From: a virus
Reading direction: 5' to 3' (one strand)
Length of the DNA stretch: 26,072 bases
Virus genome (UHGV): UHGV-0157394
Each line of letters begins with the position of its first letter. Positions within the stretch are counted from its first letter, which is position 1. This document shows, piece after piece, positions 2,721 through 22,625 of the stretch. The notes below the pieces were generated by a model. The model was not told the origin of the DNA, did no database searches, and was given only the letters and a program-made list of their open reading frames with translations. A program made the translations under genes and the position numbers.

Positions 2721-3769
2721 GAAATCGTCCCCAGAACCGCCAGTTCATTTTTTGCAATGGAGATATTATCTGCCGGTGCAAGCAACTGATGGCTGTATTC
2801 CCCGTTCGCACCGGAAATCGCCTCACTGATACGCGATACCTTCAGTTCTCCCTGCGGATAACCATCACGCAGCAGGAACGAACGCAACTCCGCGGTGATG
2901 GCAGCCCGTATTTCCGGTGTATCCGGCGTCACACGGATATGAAAATCCACCGTATGCGCCACCGGCCTGAACACATACAAATCAGAGCCTGCCACCGGGG
3001 CCAGCGGCCCGATATGTTGTCTTGCCGCCGTTTCCGTTGATTCTTCCGGAATGGGATTAATCAGGTCACTACTGGCAATCATCACACCGACAGTCCCCGT
3101 TCCCATCCAGTGACGGTATGCCCATGCGCGGGTAATGCCGGGCACTTCTTTAGCCCAGACGACATAGTCCCCGTCAGCCCCGCCCTGCGGCGTCCAGTAA
3201 TACCGCTCAATGACGCGGGCGCGCCACGTTTCCAGATCTTCAGTATCAAATCCACCTGTCAGGGTATCTGCCACACCGGAAGACGGCAGACCATTCACCG
3301 GCGTGACCAGGATTAATGCCGTACCGTCGTCAGCGTTACCGACCGCGCCTGCAGTTGAACAGGCGATCGGCAGGCGCAGGACACCACCGGAGCTGGTTGC
3401 ATCGGCAGTTGCCGTGTACTGAACCAGGTCATCGCGCTGAATAACACTTCCGGCGGTCACCTTCAGGCCATCGCTGACACCTTCCCAGCGCATATACCCG
3501 CTGGCAGCCGTGGCCCCCTTGCGCGGACACCGTTTCATCGCAGCATGTCGCGCCAGCCAGAACTCATCGCACAGGTCAGGCAGCATGTTCATTGCCAGAT
3601 AATCGATGTACCCGTAAACCGTATGCAGCGCCGCCGCATACACCTTTGCCCGCACGTCTTCATCCATGCGCCGGAGCGTGTCGCTGACGTCCAGCCTGGC
3701 GAATAAATCGTTACGGAGCATACTGATATTTTCTGCCAGCGTCGGGCGCTGAAATTCACTGTCCGCCAT
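2711..3769 (-). CDS. Baseplate J-like protein (Mu gp47-like)
   Basis: 352-aa ORF in conserved Mu-like baseplate order. Confidence 0.85.
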
Positions 3770-4184
3770 GCGTTATCGCACTCCACAGATCATCAAAAGA
3801 AATCATTACCGGTCCGTCACGACGCCAGAGAGTGATACTGTTACCCAGTTCATTAATCCCGGTGCGGCGGATATCCAGATCAATACGGGACACCACGCCG
3901 TCATCAATCATCCATTGCAGGCATTCGCGGATATACCCCCTTACCGTCTGCACCAGCTGATTGGTCAGTTTGCTGCGCTGAAGCAGCCACAGTCGGGAGC
4001 CGTAACGGTCATTCTGTACCGCAGGCCAGGTATCCCCCCACCATCCCATCGGGACTTCGGCGTTGTCATCAGGCTCCGCCCGCCGCCAGGTAAACAGGGA
4101 AATCACCACGGCGCGGGTCAGCGGATCCAGTTGTGCGCTGGCGCAGGTGCGTTTACCGTTCACCGTCAGCCACAGTTCCATCAT
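3756..4184 (-). CDS. Mu gp46-like baseplate protein
   Basis: 142-aa ORF between baseplate V and J homologues. Confidence 0.75.
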   Translation of the reverse strand: MMELWLTVNGKRTCASAQLDPLTRAVVISLFTWRRAEPDDNAEVPMGWWGDTWPAVQNDRYGSRLWLLQRSKLTNQLVQTVRGYIRECLQWMIDDGVVSRIDLDIRRTGINELGNSITLWRRDGPVMISFDDLWSAITHGGQ

Positions 4185-4729
4185 GCCTCCATCACTTTAT
4201 CAGGTTTGTCGGTGTTACTGCCCTGACCGTTCTCTCTGTGACGATGCCCGTTATAGGCAAGCCGCATCGCTGACATGGTGGTGCCGGTGGAGTCGCACAG
4301 GTCTTTCACCTGTCCGGTCACTTCCAGGTCCATTTCAAAACGTGCCTTAGGCGCATTGCGAAACGTGATCGTTTTACCTGCACCGTCCACCACGATCCCC
4401 TCCCGGGCCAGCGTCACGGACTGCCCCTGATCGTCATAGACAGCCACCTCACCCGTCTGCAGCCCTTTCAGGCGGTAGCGCCGGTCCGACACCGTAACAA
4501 CCACCGCATGAGAACGGTCGCCATCCGGAAACAACACCACCGCTTCCGCACCGCTGTTTGCCCTTGCGGTAAAACCGTAGGGTTCAAGATGTTCAACCCC
4601 GGCTTTGGGTTCACCGGCAATCAGGGACACATCCACGGTCTGACATTTCGTGGCGGCACTGATGCTTTTCACCACGGCCCGCCCAATCAGGCCGAGGAGT
4701 TGTCGCTGCATGGCTTCAATCGTCCTCAT
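4181..4729 (-). CDS. Baseplate assembly protein V / spike (Mu gp45-like)
   Basis: 182-aa ORF, translationally coupled to flanking baseplate genes. Confidence 0.8.
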   Translation of the reverse strand: MRTIEAMQRQLLGLIGRAVVKSISAATKCQTVDVSLIAGEPKAGVEHLEPYGFTARANSGAEAVVLFPDGDRSHAVVVTVSDRRYRLKGLQTGEVAVYDDQGQSVTLAREGIVVDGAGKTITFRNAPKARFEMDLEVTGQVKDLCDSTGTTMSAMRLAYNGHRHRENGQGSNTDKPDKVMEA

Positions 4730-5808
4730 CAGAACGGGTCCTCCTGTACTCTGGCTTTTTTCTTTTTCCGCGCGCCGGGGGCTTCGGGTTCAGGCAGATA
4801 AGCATCAGGCGGGCCGACACGGATTTCCGTCAGGGTGCCGTTCTGGTCCTGAGTAAACGTGACTTCCGAAACAAGCAGTTCGGTATTGTCGAAACCACAG
4901 ACCGGATCAAAGACAATCACCCGCTGGTTGGGCTGCCACAGCGTACCGTTACCCTGTCGCCAGCCCTGCACCACATAGGTGGTTTCATCCGTCCGCGCCG
5001 CCCGTTGCCGGGCTTCAAAGTCAGCACGGGCAATACAGCCAGCCCCCGTAGCCTGCCCTGTCTGCCTGATATACATCGGACGGTAACGGGCAATAAATGC
5101 GTCCTCTGTGCGGGCCCGCAGCGCGGTGGTGGTGGCCTCACCGAAATCATCGTCGTTTCCGGCACGCTGCCCCGCCACCTGGTAAACAGAAAACCGCTCC
5201 CGGATACTCTTCTCCGTATCGCAGGAAAGGATGTTTTCCCCGAGTACCAGCGCAGTATGTGCCCGCGTTGAGCCAATACCGCCAATCACCAGCCTGCCGT
5301 GCGGGTCGTCGTAAGCCAGTGCCTGCTGCTGACCGAGTATTTTGTTGATTACCTCAATCACCGTTTCACCGTGATCAGGCTGGACATCAGGAATAACACC
5401 CGACGGCGCACCGTTGTTCACCACCTCAATGCCGAAAGGCGCAGCAAGCACCTGCGCAATCTGTACCAGCGATCGTCCGTTAAACTGTGTCGGTTCGGCT
5501 GCACAGTCAATCAGGTCAGCGGTCAGACTGCGTCCGGCAATACCGGTGCTGACCGAACGGGCATCGTAACGAACGGGCGTCGCCTCCACCCAGCCGGTGA
5601 TCACCAGCTCATCACCAATCAGCACCTCCACTTTTGAACCGTTTTTAATGCGCGGCTGAAGCGTGGTAATACCCTCATCTCCCGGCCACTGGCGGGTGAT
5701 CTCCACACTGAAATCCCGCGCCAGCCGTTCAATACCGGCACCGATGCGCACCGATGTCCAGCCATTCCACTCCCGGCCATTTACCCGTAGCGTGACATTG
5801 TCGTTCAT
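4729..5808 (-). CDS. Mu gpP-like tail/baseplate hub protein (gp44 family)
   Basis: 359-aa ORF downstream of the DNA-circulation protein, as in Mu. Confidence 0.85.
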   Translation of the reverse strand: MNDNVTLRVNGREWNGWTSVRIGAGIERLARDFSVEITRQWPGDEGITTLQPRIKNGSKVEVLIGDELVITGWVEATPVRYDARSVSTGIAGRSLTADLIDCAAEPTQFNGRSLVQIAQVLAAPFGIEVVNNGAPSGVIPDVQPDHGETVIEVINKILGQQQALAYDDPHGRLVIGGIGSTRAHTALVLGENILSCDTEKSIRERFSVYQVAGQRAGNDDDFGEATTTALRARTEDAFIARYRPMYIRQTGQATGAGCIARADFEARQRAARTDETTYVVQGWRQGNGTLWQPNQRVIVFDPVCGFDNTELLVSEVTFTQDQNGTLTEIRVGPPDAYLPEPEAPGARKKKKARVQEDPF

Positions 5809-17378: not shown

Positions 17379-19112
17379 TTAAAGCGAGCGGATCCCGTAG
17401 GACTCAATGTGATCAGACAGCGTGTCTTCTTTCTCGTACAGCATGGCTCTGCCAACCGCCATAATCAGCGCAACTGCACCGTCAATTTTGTTTTCCGCCT
17501 GCTCTTTGACGGGTTTCACCACATCATCGTTACCCGGCATGTTTTTGCCGACCACGTTGCCGATACACCAGGTCATGATGGGATTGCCGTCATGATGAAA
17601 ACGTCCCGATTCAATCGCTGCTTCCAGCTCTTTCATCGGATCGGACATATTGGTGAAGTTCTGGAAGATAGTGACGGGATTCAGGTCTTCATCAGCAAGG
17701 TCATGTGACAGCCCGGTCGCCCCGAAGGGGTCGATGGGTGACTCGCTGACCGGGCTGATTTTGTTCGCCGCTTTGGCCTCTTCGAGGATGTAGCGATAAT
17801 CCACCTCTGCACCATCGGTAACGGTCAGGACGCCCATTTCCACCCATTTCTGAAAGCGTTCGGCTGTCCGGCGATCTTCATTTTTCTCGACGCTGTACAC
17901 CGTGTCATACGGTACCCAGAAACGCGGGGCCACACTGTAGTAATGCGTTTTACCGTCAATCTCGCGGGTATAAAGTCGCGCCATGCTGTTCATATCCAGT
18001 TTACGCGCCAGGTCAAAGGCCAGAATGCACGGCTGCCCCTCGAATTGCTCAAGAGTCAGTGATTTATCCTCGCAGCTCTGCCAGCTCACCAGGTTGAAAT
18101 ACGCCGAACGCGCCGACACCCAGATATTGAGGTGTTTTGTTTTAAAGACGTTTGCCAGACGGGCGTTATTTTTCGCACGCTGTTGCTGACTTAACAAAAA
18201 CTCACGGTAAACCGACACCCCGATATTCGGGTTGGCTTTTTCCAGCACCTGTGGGTTGGTCCAGTCGTCACCTTCGTCAACGGTATAGATGATCCCGAAC
18301 AGTTCATCGTTGGGTACCGAACCGTTGAGCATCTCGATAACTTCCCGCCGTTTGTCGTAGCACGGCCCCTCAATGTTGTACCCGGCAGTAGTAATGGCCC
18401 ACATCAGTGGCTGACGTCGCGCCCCCATCCCGGTAAGCATCGTGGTGTAAAGCGCATCGGTGGCGTGCTCGTGATATTCATCCACCACCGCACAGTGGGG
18501 TGATGATCCATCACCGGGGTTACCGATCAGCGGTTCAAACCGCGCGCCATCCTCCGGACGGTTCATGTTTGAGGCGTTAACCTCAATCCCGAACGCTTCC
18601 GTCAGCATGGGTGTGCGTTTACACATCAGTCGCGCCGGGCGAAAGACTTCCCACGCCTGTTTCTCTGTCGTGGCACCGGAATACACTTCCGCGCCAAACT
18701 CGTTATCACAGGCAAAACAATACAGGGCGACACCGGCAGAGATTGCCGATTTGCCGTTCTTACGGGGGATTTCGGTATACACCTCACGGAAGCGGCGCAG
18801 CCGGGAGCCTTTATTGACCCAGCCAAACGCGCAGCAGATCACAAAGAGCTGCCACGGCTCCAGCGTGATGGGCATCCTCTTAAATGCCCACTCACCCTTG
18901 GTGTGCGGCAACAGCTGAATAAATTTGGCGGCCCGTTCAGCCAGGTCCTTGTCGAAGCGGTAACGAAACGACTTACTTTTTTCCGCCATCAGGTCATCAA
19001 GATGGCGCTGGCAGGCCTGAATCACAAACTGGCAGGCCACAATCTTTCCCCGCACGACATCACGGGCATACTGATTGGCAGCATTTACGTTGGGGTAAGA
19101 TTTCCGGCTCAT
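17379..19112 (-). CDS. Terminase large subunit
   Basis: 577 aa; size and position typical of HK97-like terminase. Confidence 0.95.
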
Positions 19113-20091: not shown

Positions 20092-20120
20092 AAAAAACCG
20101 CCCGGAGGCGGTTATAGTTT
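20092..20120 (-). terminator. Intrinsic terminator after the 92-aa moron gene
   Basis: ACCGCC-tccg-GGCGGT stem followed by TTTTTTATT on the minus strand; overlaps the stop codon of the 20112..20390 gene. Confidence 0.6.
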
Positions 20121-20390
20121 TTTGTATGGCTTTGGCTTTGGGTTGCCATGCCTGATGTGCGACTTAATCACATCGTCGCTTGGCCTGCGTCCGTTAACTC
20201 CGATCAGATAAATCTCGTCATCCACCTGGAATTCAAAGATCTGATACTCCACATCGGGGATGACCGCCACGCCACCAACCATTTCCCGAGCCTTCACTTG
20301 ACAGTCCGGAACCTTGATCGTCAACTCATGCCTTTCAACGTGGCAAACCGAACCAAAACGCCCAGCGCCGAACACAACTACGTCGAACAT
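20112..20390 (-). CDS. Moron gene: small protein of unknown function (92 aa from the ATG start)
   Basis: Strong RBS GGAGG 5 nt upstream of ATG at 20390 (the track starts at an upstream GTG); own extended -10 promoter and own terminator; AT-rich upstream region. Confidence 0.65.
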   Translation of the reverse strand: MFDVVVFGAGRFGSVCHVERHELTIKVPDCQVKAREMVGGVAVIPDVEYQIFEFQVDDEIYLIGVNGRRPSDDVIKSHIRHGNPKPKPYKKL

Positions 20391-20419
20391 ATGCACCTCC
20401 TTTCCATTGATGCCTGATA

Positions 20420-20430
20420 ATTATATCACA
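20420..20430 (-). promoter_or_regulatory. Candidate extended -10 promoter (TGtgaTATAAT) for the 92-aa gene
   Basis: Consensus TATAAT with upstream TG in the AT-rich spacer, about 30 nt upstream of the ATG. Confidence 0.4.
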
Positions 20431-20520
20431 ATGAAAATAAAGGATTTTATGTCAACCACAATAAAAATTGAGATGTTCATCACCATTATCAAGCCCACCA
20501 GCAGATGAGCTTTGTAATGG

Positions 20521-20778
20521 CTACTTCGCTTTTGCTTCCGCTCGCTTACGCCGGCGCTCTTCTTTCCTCTCGGCTTTTGCCATGTCCATGAATGCCTGCA
20601 TGATCGAGTTCCGCATCATGTAGCTAACAAAGTGATGATTGACACAGCCGTTGAGGCGCAGCTGCTCGCCAAACTCATCCACCGAGGCCAATGCTTCCAT
20701 CATGCCCTTCTCGCCTTTCATGAACTCTGAGAAGTCGCGCCCCGCTCTGGAGGCGCATTCTATTATTCGGGTGCTCAT
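20521..20778 (-). CDS. Small protein of unknown function (85 aa from internal ATG; highly basic Lys/Arg-rich C-terminal tail)
   Basis: ORF beginning 2 nt after the KilA-N gene stop (probable translational coupling); the track's upstream start at 20838 would overlap the KilA-N gene. Confidence 0.5.
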   Translation of the reverse strand: MSTRIIECASRAGRDFSEFMKGEKGMMEALASVDEFGEQLRLNGCVNHHFVSYMMRNSIMQAFMDMAKAERKEERRRKRAEAKAK

Positions 20779-20780
20779 GA

Positions 20781-21509
20781 TCAGGCCGCCGCATAGAGCA
20801 ATTTCATCTGCCCTTTCACCTGGAATGCCGACATGCAACGCGCTTCGAAATCACGATAATCAGAGCACCCATTGGCAATGCTGGTAACGGCAATGATCTG
20901 TCGCTCAACCAATGTCAGCGCGTCAGGTTTAAGGTGCTGATGGATTTTGTCTCCCGTAGCCAGCCGTCTTTTAACCTCTGCATATACTTCTGGTGGTAAT
21001 ACCGGGCCATATACCCACTTGGCACTGATCATCCCAAATAGTGCGGGGCGACGACCTGGTCGATGACGGGGCAGCCCTGACATTTTGAACATCGCAGAAT
21101 AAAACGGATCGCTAAACCTCTTTTCCCATGGCTGAGATTTATCCAGAAGGAAAATAGCCTTTATTCTTTCATCGTCGATATGATGAACGGAACCCTGAAT
21201 GATTGCGTCAATTTGCTCATCACACCAGATCTCAAAATCTACAGAAAGCCATCGAGCAAATCTGACCGCCAGTTTTGGGTGAAGCCATGTTCCGCCACCA
21301 CGATCTTTGCGAGCGCGGCTGGTTTTTACATATGTGATATTCCCATATCTACTCTTTAACGCCTCGATGTAACGGACAGTCTCAGGAAGCCTAAGCCACT
21401 GAGCCGGCTCCTTGTTGAACTTGTCAGCTGCCGCAGTCGCGTCAAACCAGCCATCGTCAGAAAAACGCATGGGATGGCCTTCGAAATCAATCGGGATGAT
21501 ATTGGACAT
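20781..21509 (-). CDS. KilA-N domain protein with an unassigned C-terminal domain
   Basis: IPIDFEGHPMRF...GGTWLHPKLAVRFARWLSVDFEIWC matches the KilA-N hallmark; likely start is the ATG at 21509 with AAAGG RBS rather than the track's 21584. Confidence 0.75.
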   Translation of the reverse strand: MSNIIPIDFEGHPMRFSDDGWFDATAAADKFNKEPAQWLRLPETVRYIEALKSRYGNITYVKTSRARKDRGGGTWLHPKLAVRFARWLSVDFEIWCDEQIDAIIQGSVHHIDDERIKAIFLLDKSQPWEKRFSDPFYSAMFKMSGLPRHRPGRRPALFGMISAKWVYGPVLPPEVYAEVKRRLATGDKIHQHLKPDALTLVERQIIAVTSIANGCSDYRDFEARCMSAFQVKGQMKLLYAAA

Positions 21510-21659
21510 CGTATTTACCTTTTTGGTGATATGAGCCAGTTCTCGCAGACATGGACAGCCCAAGAGCGGCACGATGTAAGCCACCGTCCTGTCTCTGTCT
21601 CATATCCCGAAAAGCTCTTGGTTGATATGCGCACGAGAATGCGCGTTTACTGCGGACAT

Positions 21660-21683
21660 AAAAAAGCCCCGCATCGCGAGGCT
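21660..21683 (-). terminator. Intrinsic terminator downstream of the lysis cassette
   Basis: AGCCUCGC-gau-GCGGGGCU stem (one G-U pair) followed by UUUUUUAUG on the minus strand. Confidence 0.55.
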
Positions 21684-21714
21684 CATTAAATGGACTTTGT
21701 GATTTGCAAAAAAA

Positions 21715-22152
21715 TTATTTCAGGCACTGAGTCCTGATGTACTCCTGCAGGTAGTTAACCTGCGCGGTTATCCTGTCGATTCCACTTCGGAGACGGTAAT
21801 AATTGAGTTCAGCATCTGCTGTAAGTCCTGGGCTTTCTCCATCGCCCATGCCGCTGGCTCCGGTCGTTGACTTTGCACAGGTGGCGGCGACTTGCAGGCG
21901 CTTACGACCAGCAGAAACATCAGCACGGAGGCTTTCGATAGTCGCGTTAGCATCAGCAAGCTCCTTTGTGTATCTGGCATCGAGTTCTGCTACGTCACGT
22001 TGACGCTTCTGCATGTCAGCGATTGTGGATGTGGCTTTATCGCGCTGTTCTTTGTAGGCGATGGCGTTATCACGGTAATGATTAACCGCCCATGACAGGC
22101 AGACGATGATGCAGATAACCAGAGCGGAGATAATCGCGGTTACTCTGCTCAT
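21715..22152 (-). CDS. Rz: Spanin inner-membrane subunit Rz
   Basis: N-terminal [31 protein letters not shown] near-identical to lambda Rz; remainder diverged. Confidence 0.9.
21768..21953 (-). CDS. Rz1: Spanin outer-membrane lipoprotein Rz1, embedded in Rz in the +1 frame
   Basis: Embedded ORF with lipobox-like LVVSAC followed by a Pro-rich segment; exact start among several Met codons is uncertain. Confidence 0.6.
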
Positions 22153-22625
22153 ACCTCAATCTCTCTGACCGTTCCACCTGCTTCTTTGAATTTTGCAATC
22201 AGGCTGTCTGCCTTATGCTCGAACTGACCATAACCAGCACCCGGCAGTGAAGCCCAGATATTGCTGCAACGGTCGATTGCCTGACGGATATCGCCGCGAT
22301 CAATCATCGGTAAAGCGCCACGCTCCTTAATCTGCTGCAATGCCACAGCGTCCTGGCTTTTGGGAGAGAAGTCTTTCAGGCCAAGCTGCTTGCGGTAGGC
22401 ATCCCACCAACGGGAAAGAAGCTGGTAGCGTCCTGCGGCTGTTGATTTGAGTTTGGGGTTTAGCGTGACAAGTTTGCGAGGGTGATCGGAGTAATCAGTG
22501 AATAGCTCTCCTCCTACAATGACGTCATAACCATGATTTCTGGTTTTCTGACGTCCGTTATCAGTTCCCTCTGACCATGCCAGCATATCGAGGAACGCCT
22601 TACGTTGATTATTGATTTCCACCAT
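22149..22625 (-). CDS. R: Endolysin R (lytic transglycosylase)
   Basis: 158 aa, essentially identical to lambda R as recalled. Confidence 0.95.

Follow-up and report, generated by a model that had tools for sequence, protein, structure and literature searches.

The gp73/p61 gene pair of lambdoid phages and the conserved leader RNA that precedes it and other Bro-network genes

The window analysed here is a stretch of 26,072 nucleotides from the virus genome UHGV-0157394, and the locus in question consists of two genes on its minus strand, a KilA-N gene (21509..20781) and a small gene (20778..20521), with a leader RNA of about 150 nt in front of them. The locus is the gp73/p61 pair of phage HK97, a gene pair that is already known and ordinary for lambdoid phages; the parts worth following up are the pairing rule of the two genes, the small protein as a module of the Bro network and, above all, the leader, which is supported by covariation and has no family in Rfam. 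The leader is a conserved structured RNA with a pseudoknot, possibly a new cis-RNA. The Bro network comprises domain-shuffling DNA-binding proteins of phages and satellites, with KilA-N, Bro-N, Rha, ANT, ORF11CD3, T5orf172 and other domains (PMC10111431), and the pair may be a late-expressed, non-structural, DNA-binding accessory cassette of this network, an interpretation that we rank first and regard as evenly balanced between right and wrong, each of the alternatives discussed below being unlikely.

Over Rz, gp73 and p61 (22300..20484) the window is colinear with HK97 at 97.6–98.5% nucleotide identity, ending 37 nt past the small gene, and in a megablast search of GenBank phages it shows 96.7–99% identity to mEp234, mEp235, mEp506, mEpX1, mEpX2, HK446, HK97 and HK022. 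The HK97 counterparts are gp73 (NP_037755, "KilA-N domain-containing protein") and HK97p61 (NP_597908), located between Rz and the HNH gene gp74. An earlier note on this DNA, made from the letters alone, had stated that such a unit is absent from canonical lambda and HK97 late regions; this is wrong for HK97, as for HK022 and the mEp phages, and for lambda it is not contradicted, no lambda match having appeared in any search. The two genes have been in the HK97 sequence since 2000 and belong to the kind of domain-shuffled KilA-N/Bro/Rha genes in which the genomes of phages and satellites abound, and records deposited in 2025 already name the first gene "KilA-N-P63C". Literature searches (HK97 gp73, P63C, ORF11CD3, mEp phages, PhiR49) returned no functional study.

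Structure and distribution of the leader RNA

The leader lies at 21510..21655 on the minus strand, as do all features of the cassette given below, and the covariance model R1 has its single match in the whole window there (21655..21507 including the ATG, 115 bits, E 7e-23). It contains the hairpin H0 (GCGCA-N6-TGCGC, 21629..21644), which elsewhere reads GTGCA/TGCAC or GTGC/GCAC and is poorly aligned, with about 50% of the cells paired and weak counted support. The segment just 5' of helix B is the 5' strand of helix A (CCAAGAGC, 21614..21621), and it joins the apical loop by pairing with GCTCTTGG at 21567..21560, giving a pseudoknot. Helix B is formed by 21595..21613, including the U-rich CUUUU, and 21539..21521, and helix E, formed by 21586..21594 and 21556..21547, stacks on it, while the apical region (21557..21585) holds hairpin C (21585..21573), the 3' strand of helix A and a conserved GGG. 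Between helices E and B there is a conserved, asymmetric bulge of 6–7 nt, GCGAGAA at 21540..21546 and GUGAGA, ACGCGAA or GUGCGG elsewhere (alignments A7 and A8), and the 3' strand of helix B leads into an A-rich stretch with the Shine-Dalgarno (SD) sequence AAAAAGG (21517..21539), 8 nt before the ATG.

Covariation was measured in a plain MAFFT alignment of 30 representatives and in a model-fitted alignment (A8) of 51 distinct sequences. Both sides change in 33 of the 43 pairs in the former, with a covariation of 0.28 versus 0.16 in shuffled controls (0/500) and at most 0.153 in slid registers, and in 36 of the 43 in the latter, with 0.279 versus 0.152 (0/500) and at most 0.147. RNAalifold returns the long helix B with 13 of 17 pairs compensatory; in the model-fitted alignment 82% of its cells are paired and 15 of the 17 pairs change on both sides, the figures for helix E being 85% and 8 of 9. 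Helix A, though it is outside the alignment model, changes on both sides in 6 of its 8 pairs, and it is a perfect helix of 6–8 bp in most of the 51 distinct leaders, at the same place and in at least ten co-varying sequence versions. Many pairs are G-U, which fits the sense (coding) strand only. Rfam 15 has no family that matches the leader, the thresholds being E≤1 for the window and E≤0.1 for seven diverse loci, in which matches to sar RNA and tRNA acted as positive controls. A topology like that of the hepatitis delta virus (HDV) ribozyme, considered from the order of the helices, was discarded, as no Rfam ribozyme model matched and nothing else spoke for it.

The first clue to the leader was Klebsiella phage RAH1, which carries another type of KilA-N gene in a tail-gene slot and is 88% identical over window 21671..21507, from the terminator to the start codon. 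Alignable upstream regions are present in HK97, Oslo, two Klebsiella phages, HK620 and Stx2-1717 and in prophages of Providencia, Yersinia, Pantoea and Gilliamella, most of the whole set starting with a terminator; the leader profile matches 112 of 114 distinct KilA-N upstream regions. A terminator-like hairpin, homologous or analogous to that of the window, stands directly 5' of 34 of the 44 representative leaders, in different genomic slots. When IMG/VR was scanned for one leader subtype by a pattern that is blind to the genes, 53 model-confirmed matches were found in 50 loci, with 46 distinct open reading frames (ORFs) downstream. The Rha family accounts for 23 of these and the KilA-N family for 16, and the others are two HNH ORFs, one with ANT (KilAC), one with T5orf172, one homologue of the small protein and two that are unclassified (low-scoring matches). 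Since the downstream classes comprise Rha, KilA-N, HNH, ANT and T5orf172, the leader is a shared 5' module of Bro-network genes and not specific to the gp73/p61 pair. Some of the phage regions hold a second copy detected by the covariance model (L095:990-1128, L255:470-609, L015:2539-2680 and L327:28-171), and these copies precede HNH_3/AP2-type or other HNH ORFs of 170–198 aa and a second KilA-N-ORF11CD3-like gene.

The similarity between leaders could also be explained at the DNA level, as a recombination linker or a protein-binding site and not as a functional RNA. Lambdoid phages share short conserved boundary sequences at mosaic joints, such joints coincide with the leader edges, and the predicted occlusion of the ribosome binding site, described below, is weak. 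A DNA element does not account for four helices that keep their complementarity through two-sided changes in 36 of 43 pairs (0/500 shuffles, slid registers far lower), nor for the many versions of helix A at one place; the frequent G-U pairs would be A-C mismatches on the other strand, and the leader always keeps the same orientation and the same distance to the start codon. We consider the DNA explanation quite improbable.

The two proteins and the pairing of their genes

The first gene (20781..21509, ATG at 21509, TGA at 20783-20781) encodes a protein of 242 aa that corresponds to HK97 gp73 and, over its whole length, to phrog_1136, labelled "unknown function". The KilA-N hallmark GGTWLHPKLAVRFARWLSVDFEIWC seen in the earlier note is confirmed, as are the 2-nt junction, the basic-tailed ORF of 85 aa and the terminator after Rz, all on the minus strand. 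The KilA-N domain, a predicted DNA-binding domain, covers residues 8–105 (21195..21488; Pfam PF04383, E 1.2e-22, 80.2 bits with a gathering cut-off of 23.8). The C-terminal part of about 130 aa, which had been regarded as unassignable, matches P63C (Pfam PF10546) over residues 117–193 with 43.1 bits against a cut-off of 26.1, and alignments with relatives extend the conserved unit from about residue 115 to the end (20784..21167). An AlphaFold2 (AF2) model of residues 106–242 is all-alpha (pLDDT 83.5), and its top Foldseek match in BFVD is p63 of Myxococcus phage Mx8 (E 1.6e-4, probability 1.00), the protein from which the domain takes its name. A protein search with the C-terminal half alone gave mostly fragments and was rerun with the alignment as query; the KilA-N-P63C architecture is widespread in Gamma- and Betaproteobacteria.

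Two further reading frames in the leader, a GTG-extended frame of 267 aa (GTG at 21584) and an upstream ORF of 19 aa (ATG at 21659), are not conserved, and the indels in the leader are not multiples of three. Some gene callers do extend the KilA-N ORF to GTG 21584 or a similar position, and the database proteins P0140–P0142 are 263 aa long; such an extension (21510-21584) makes a spurious N-terminus from part of the structured leader.

Neither protein of the pair shows an ANT (PF03374)/KilAC, AntA or P22_AR domain at E≤1 in Pfam, or a nuclease domain (HNH, GIY-YIG, LAGLIDADG or similar) or catalytic motif in Pfam and NCBIfam, the latter giving zero matches among the three proteins tested. A sequence search of PDB gave nothing for either, and PADLOC-DB gave no meaningful match to a defence model, only PDC-S22 (30 residues, E 9e-5) and QatB (E 0.02), with no match to BstA.

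The small gene (20521..20778, ATG at 20778, TAG at 20523-20521) corresponds to HK97p61, HK620 hkbL and phrog_875, a family annotated "unknown function" that it matches with E 1e-53. Its product of 85 aa ends in AKAERKEERRRKRAEAKAK, and the AF2 model (pLDDT 89) has three helices, 3–20, 26–42 and 48–84, the last one bearing the basic C-terminal tail, with generic structural neighbours. The family is small, its relatives falling into 137 clusters that are all from Enterobacterales and none of them named, and HMMER over 1.84 billion representatives found only 22 relatives at E≤0.001. The dN/dS is 0.03–0.16 against homologues with 68–99% amino-acid identity and 0.29 against the most distant one, from Trabulsiella (56% identity), the HK97 copy being an exception owing to its frameshifted tail. 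The small ORF is therefore not spurious but a real protein-coding gene under purifying selection. A copy that is 96% identical is located on a 4-kb contig (L012) in a metagenome-assembled genome labelled Candidatus Nanosynbacter (Patescibacteria), where it was most likely binned through contamination with DNA of an enterobacterial phage.

The gene-blind leader search also gave two ORFs that bear on the origin of the small protein. One, of 74 aa (L380), stands alone behind a leader and matches the small protein in hhalign (95.6% probability, E 1e-8) as well as both phrog_875 and phrog_4284, a family of 171 aa to which the 85-aa protein itself shows a weak match (E 2.9e-6). The other, of 162 aa, is a full-length member of phrog_4284 (E 9e-88) with T5orf172/MUG113 as its C-terminal half, and an independent HMMER scan of the library found relatives of the small protein of 164 and 179 aa (P0266, P0268) that also carry a C-terminal T5orf172/MUG113. 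By these matches the 85-aa protein is a free-standing version of the module with which T5orf172 proteins (GIY-YIG superfamily) begin, and with that one more piece of the domain-shuffling Bro network. A Cys2His2 metal site (C8, C45, H48 and H49, about invariant in close relatives) was dropped, as the distant L380 has no C8, H48 or H49.

The pairing of the genes was surveyed in 94 loci with the small gene, taken from phage records, seven species-representative genomes and 80 IMG/VR contigs, and 93 of them are informative, having upstream DNA. A KilA-N gene is located immediately 5' of the small gene in all 93, which supports the two-gene unit of the earlier note and shows that its members co-occur elsewhere. 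The upstream partner is a KilA-N-ORF11CD3 gene of 165 aa (HK620 hkbK, Stx-phage gp49 type) in about 75 loci and KilA-N-P63C in about 16, the few others being truncated remnants. The junction is +2 nt in all P63C-type pairs, reading TGAtcATG in the window (20776..20783, stop, 2-nt spacer and start), and –4 (ATGA overlap) in nearly all ORF11CD3-type pairs. Between gp73 and hkbK the KilA-N domains share only 22% identity, against 97% between the small partners, and Klebsiella phages again have both types of pair, with small proteins that are about 70% identical. The cassettes from the leader scan with a Rha-ORF11CD3 first gene were never found to have the small gene behind them, so that the link runs to the KilA-N domain and not to the C-terminal domain. 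The two-gene unit is genuine and conserved, with probable translational coupling, and it occupies an accessory position that has the lysis genes on one side and the HNH/terminase genes on the other.

The association goes one way. KilA-N-P63C genes are found without the small gene in Salmonella phages Oslo, SPN3UB and S107 and in prophages of Providencia, Yersinia, Pantoea, Gilliamella and Acinetobacter, and in one Pseudomonas phage P63C is fused behind a Rha domain. No hidden homologue of the small gene was found at the loci with a lone KilA-N-P63C, and the ORFs located 3' of distant KilA-N-P63C genes (72 aa in Yersinia, 49 aa in Acinetobacter, and others) are not homologues of the small protein. 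In complete E. coli genomes the small gene is present in 427 of 5426 (about 8%, including O157:H7 Stx prophages), and the P63C form in 18 only. The KilA-N-P63C protein thus does not need the small protein, and the two-component system of the earlier note, with its implied obligatory partnership, is not supported. In Salmonella phages S107, S135 and S137 (MH370364, MH370382 and MH370383) the two forms coexist: the tail region (about 11.4 kb) holds KilA-N-P63C without the small gene, and KilA-N-ORF11CD3 with the small gene is found near the right end (about 49 kb).

KilA-N domains are also found in the P1 KilA protein, which is lethal when expressed, and in the abortive-infection protein BstA. 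The pair could thus be a toxin with its antidote, or an abortive-infection or exclusion system, where the KilA-N protein is harmful, in the manner of P1 KilA or BstA, and the small protein neutralises or tunes it. The tight coupling to a small partner is like the gene order of some toxin-antitoxin families, and the weak PADLOC match to the candidate PDC-S22 covers 30 residues of the KilA-N motif only. The small gene is not an antidote that KilA-N-P63C must have, given how often the latter is found alone, and the co-occurrence in both directions expected of an obligate toxin-antitoxin pair is not seen. In addition no defence-system model gives a meaningful match, the locus is not beside the immunity region, and expression from the prophage is the rule for defence genes, while the scan described below showed no promoter belonging to the pair. 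On balance this explanation is seldom likely to be the right one, and we place it among the least probable.

Expression and possible roles of the cassette

The cassette starts at an intrinsic terminator (21659..21684), with a stem-loop at 21684..21664 that has a 9-bp stem with six G-C pairs and is followed by a T-run, located between Rz (22152..21715) and the pair. A crude scan, based on the consensus alone, showed no σ70-like promoter on this strand from the terminator to the ATG (21510-21664), and no terminator was seen directly after 20521. No LexA box (CTGT-N8-ACAG, at most one mismatch) is found in or near the cassette; the nearest of nine matches in the window is at 18249, the number expected by chance being 8.6. 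With neither a consensus promoter nor a LexA box, transcription probably depends on read-through by the Q-modified polymerase. A moron in the sense of Hendrix has its own promoter, a gene and its own terminator and is expressed from the prophage; here the terminator lies upstream of the gp73/p61 unit.

The cassette consists of four parts in a fixed order, the intrinsic terminator, the leader of about 150 nt, the KilA-N-P63C gene and the coupled gene for the 85-aa protein; it would have no promoter of its own and would be transcribed only by the Q-modified late RNA polymerase that reads through the Rz terminator. The leader might then gate the translation or the processing of the first gene. 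The base of helix B would pair the U-rich stretch with the A-rich/SD region, and helix A looks sterically incompatible with the lower part of helix B, so that the leader may be a switch with one form that is translatable and one that is closed, or may be processed. The two proteins would be made in roughly equal amounts and would act together by way of the KilA-N domain and not the C-terminal domain, the small protein presumably working together with the KilA-N protein, and their target might be DNA of the host, of a co-resident prophage or of a satellite; neither would be a component of the virion or of lysis.

Several points weigh against this interpretation. Late, Q-dependent expression is deduced only from where the cassette lies and from the crude scan, which showed no consensus promoter. 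In the HK620-type leader CCUUU pairs with AAAGG, and in the window variant only the A-tract beside AGG is paired; the unpaired probability of the SD window in this variant is 0.66 versus 0.58 in shuffled sequences, an occlusion no stronger than in the controls, and over 44 leaders it is 0.45 versus 0.51, only slightly lower. Thermodynamic occlusion of the ribosome binding site is thus not supported for the leader variant of the window, and the switch is a weak proposal. The folds of P63C and of the small protein have no informative structural neighbours, the searchable literature yielded no experiment on gp73 or p61 of HK97, and many lineages have KilA-N-P63C alone, so that the partnership may be modulatory or a mere linkage preserved by recombination.

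A regulatory or antirepressor-like role of the pair, which the earlier note had raised, is a possibility, and one form of it is a KilA-N protein that binds a CI-type repressor, as other proteins of the Bro network do, of its own or of a co-resident prophage, with the small protein as modulator. One database record labels the ORF11CD3-type homologue of RAH1 "antirepressor", one ANT (KilAC) gene has the same leader, and in ES18-like Salmonella and Klebsiella phages the cassette adjoins an arc/ant immI-like region with a sar RNA match. The label is an unverified annotation, and the adjacency to immI may reflect merely a permissive insertion slot. Antirepressors of the Gifsy type are controlled by LexA, and there is no LexA box in or near the cassette, nor is control of the Arc/Mnt type evident. 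The cassette lies inside the late operon behind a terminator, and the KilAC/ANT domain of a standard antirepressor is not found, nor are AntA and P22_AR, as stated above. We regard the antirepressor module as unlikely.

The boundaries of the cassette are sharp, and pairwise comparison places exchange at three points, the terminator, the beginning of the small gene and a position 37 nt past its stop (20484..20520), the last being the end of a mosaic block common to HK97, HK620 and the Stx phages. This could indicate a selfish mobile cassette, like a free-standing homing-endonuclease gene, in which the terminator and leader limit the harm to the phage and the proteins act on DNA for their own spread. 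The module of terminator and leader also precedes HNH_3-AP2 and T5orf172 (GIY-YIG superfamily) genes, the cassette occupies at least two unrelated genome slots, and it is partly replaced in HK542, HK633 and HK75. Bro-network domains resemble homing endonucleases (PMC10111431), and the homing-endonuclease genes of T-even phages (I-TevI, segB, Aeh1 mobE) are controlled by terminators and by hairpins that sequester the ribosome binding site (PMC2988022). Against it, a nuclease domain or a catalytic motif is not detected in either protein, and no nuclease is among the structural neighbours of the P63C fold. The small protein corresponds only to the N-terminal part of T5orf172 proteins, a non-catalytic module, and lambdoid mosaic exchange requires no enzyme of its own. 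We consider a selfish cassette improbable.

For the leader, we give somewhat less than an even chance to the proposal that it is an undescribed class of cis-RNA, a common 5' control of Bro-network genes in phages of Enterobacterales and relatives, with the 85-aa protein as a dedicated partner of KilA-N. If true, it would provide the first experimental handle on the expression and role of a very large phage gene family. Should the leader prove to be a regulatory switch, this would explain how potentially harmful DNA-binding genes are tolerated in late operons and open a reporter-based route into the function of Bro-network genes.

Neighbouring genes and comparison with known systems

The order on the minus strand is holin, lysozyme, Rz with an embedded Rz1, the pair, an ORF of 92–94 aa, an HNH endonuclease, and the small and then the large terminase subunit. 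The Rz1-like ORF (70 aa, 21768-21980) is out of frame inside Rz, which is the usual two-component spanin arrangement, and the HK75 record has a second "Rz-like spanin" coding sequence nested in Rz at the matching place. The 92-aa ORF (20112-20430 region) has an ATG at 20390 with a strong GGAGG ribosome binding site, belongs to phrog_17438 and has no Pfam match. It resembles a classical moron, with an extended –10 sequence read by eye upstream (TGATATAAT, about 20430-20422) and a stop codon that is followed at once by a bidirectional hairpin of the terminator kind (20113..20096), and it is not present in HK97 or mEp234, whose similarity to the window stops at 20484.

The cassette is located after Rz in HK97, HK620 and the Stx phages, and it has tail genes on either side in Oslo, RAH1 and ST11-VIM1phi8.1. 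In the last of these, a Klebsiella phage (L011), the pair in the tail slot is followed by an ORF of 255 aa (2752-3519) that has no Pfam match and a hydrophobic N-terminus, read by eye, that may be a signal sequence, and then at 3536-4868 by an arc/arc/Bro-N (immI-like) region with a sar RNA match of 37.6 bits, just below the Rfam cut-off. The similarity of HK542, HK633 and HK75 to the window breaks off near residue 72 of the KilA-N gene (about 21292), the mosaic joint being inside the gene; in HK542 (L008) a KilA-N remnant of 75 aa (phrog_13826) is followed by two glycosyltransferase genes, and HK75 (L009) has a hypothetical ORF of 123 aa instead.

The pair of HK97, HK022, HK446 and the mEp phages agrees with the window in its genes, their order and their place after Rz and before a gp74-like HNH gene. 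The HK97 record gives the small gene 77 aa and a frameshifted tail, whereas the window and all other copies encode 85 aa, and beyond 20484 the window differs from HK97 by the 92-aa ORF. The HK97 copy (L001/L003 3447-3680) diverges after ...HHFVSYM, which fits a shift of the frame within the basic tail; this may be genuine, or the 2000 record may contain a sequencing error. The hkbK/hkbL pair of HK620 and the pair of Stx1 and Stx2 phages (e.g. Stx2-1717 gp49/gp50) share with the window the slot after Rz, a first gene that starts with KilA-N, the nearly identical small protein and a leader of the same class. They differ in the first gene, which is 165 aa long with ORF11CD3 in place of P63C and only the 22% identity in KilA-N given above, and in the 4-nt ATGA overlap that replaces the 2-nt gap, and this form is about 20 times commoner than the P63C form in E. 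coli genomes.

Among known RNAs, the P1 c4, P4 CI and isrK immunity RNAs and the P22 sar RNA are, like the leader, cis-encoded upstream of or within Bro-network or antirepressor operons, and neither the leader of the window nor the seven diverse loci gave a leader match to any of the Rfam models C4, isrK and sar. Control of the pair by a terminator and a structured leader would resemble that of the T-even homing-endonuclease genes, which are likewise accessory DNA-acting genes in essential operons behind a terminator and a stable RNA structure at or beside the ribosome binding site. The T-even controls are simple hairpins that are bypassed by an internal late promoter, whereas the window has a multi-helix, pseudoknotted RNA of about 150 nt that is common to many genes, and no internal late promoter is evident. 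A wider frame is the Bro network, which reportedly goes back to Iyer, Koonin and Aravind in 2002 and shares with the window an N-terminal DNA-binding domain with a swappable C-terminal domain, a high mobility and many genome positions. What goes beyond the network as described is the stand-alone module of 85 aa linked to KilA-N and the shared structured leader RNA, both apparently undescribed.

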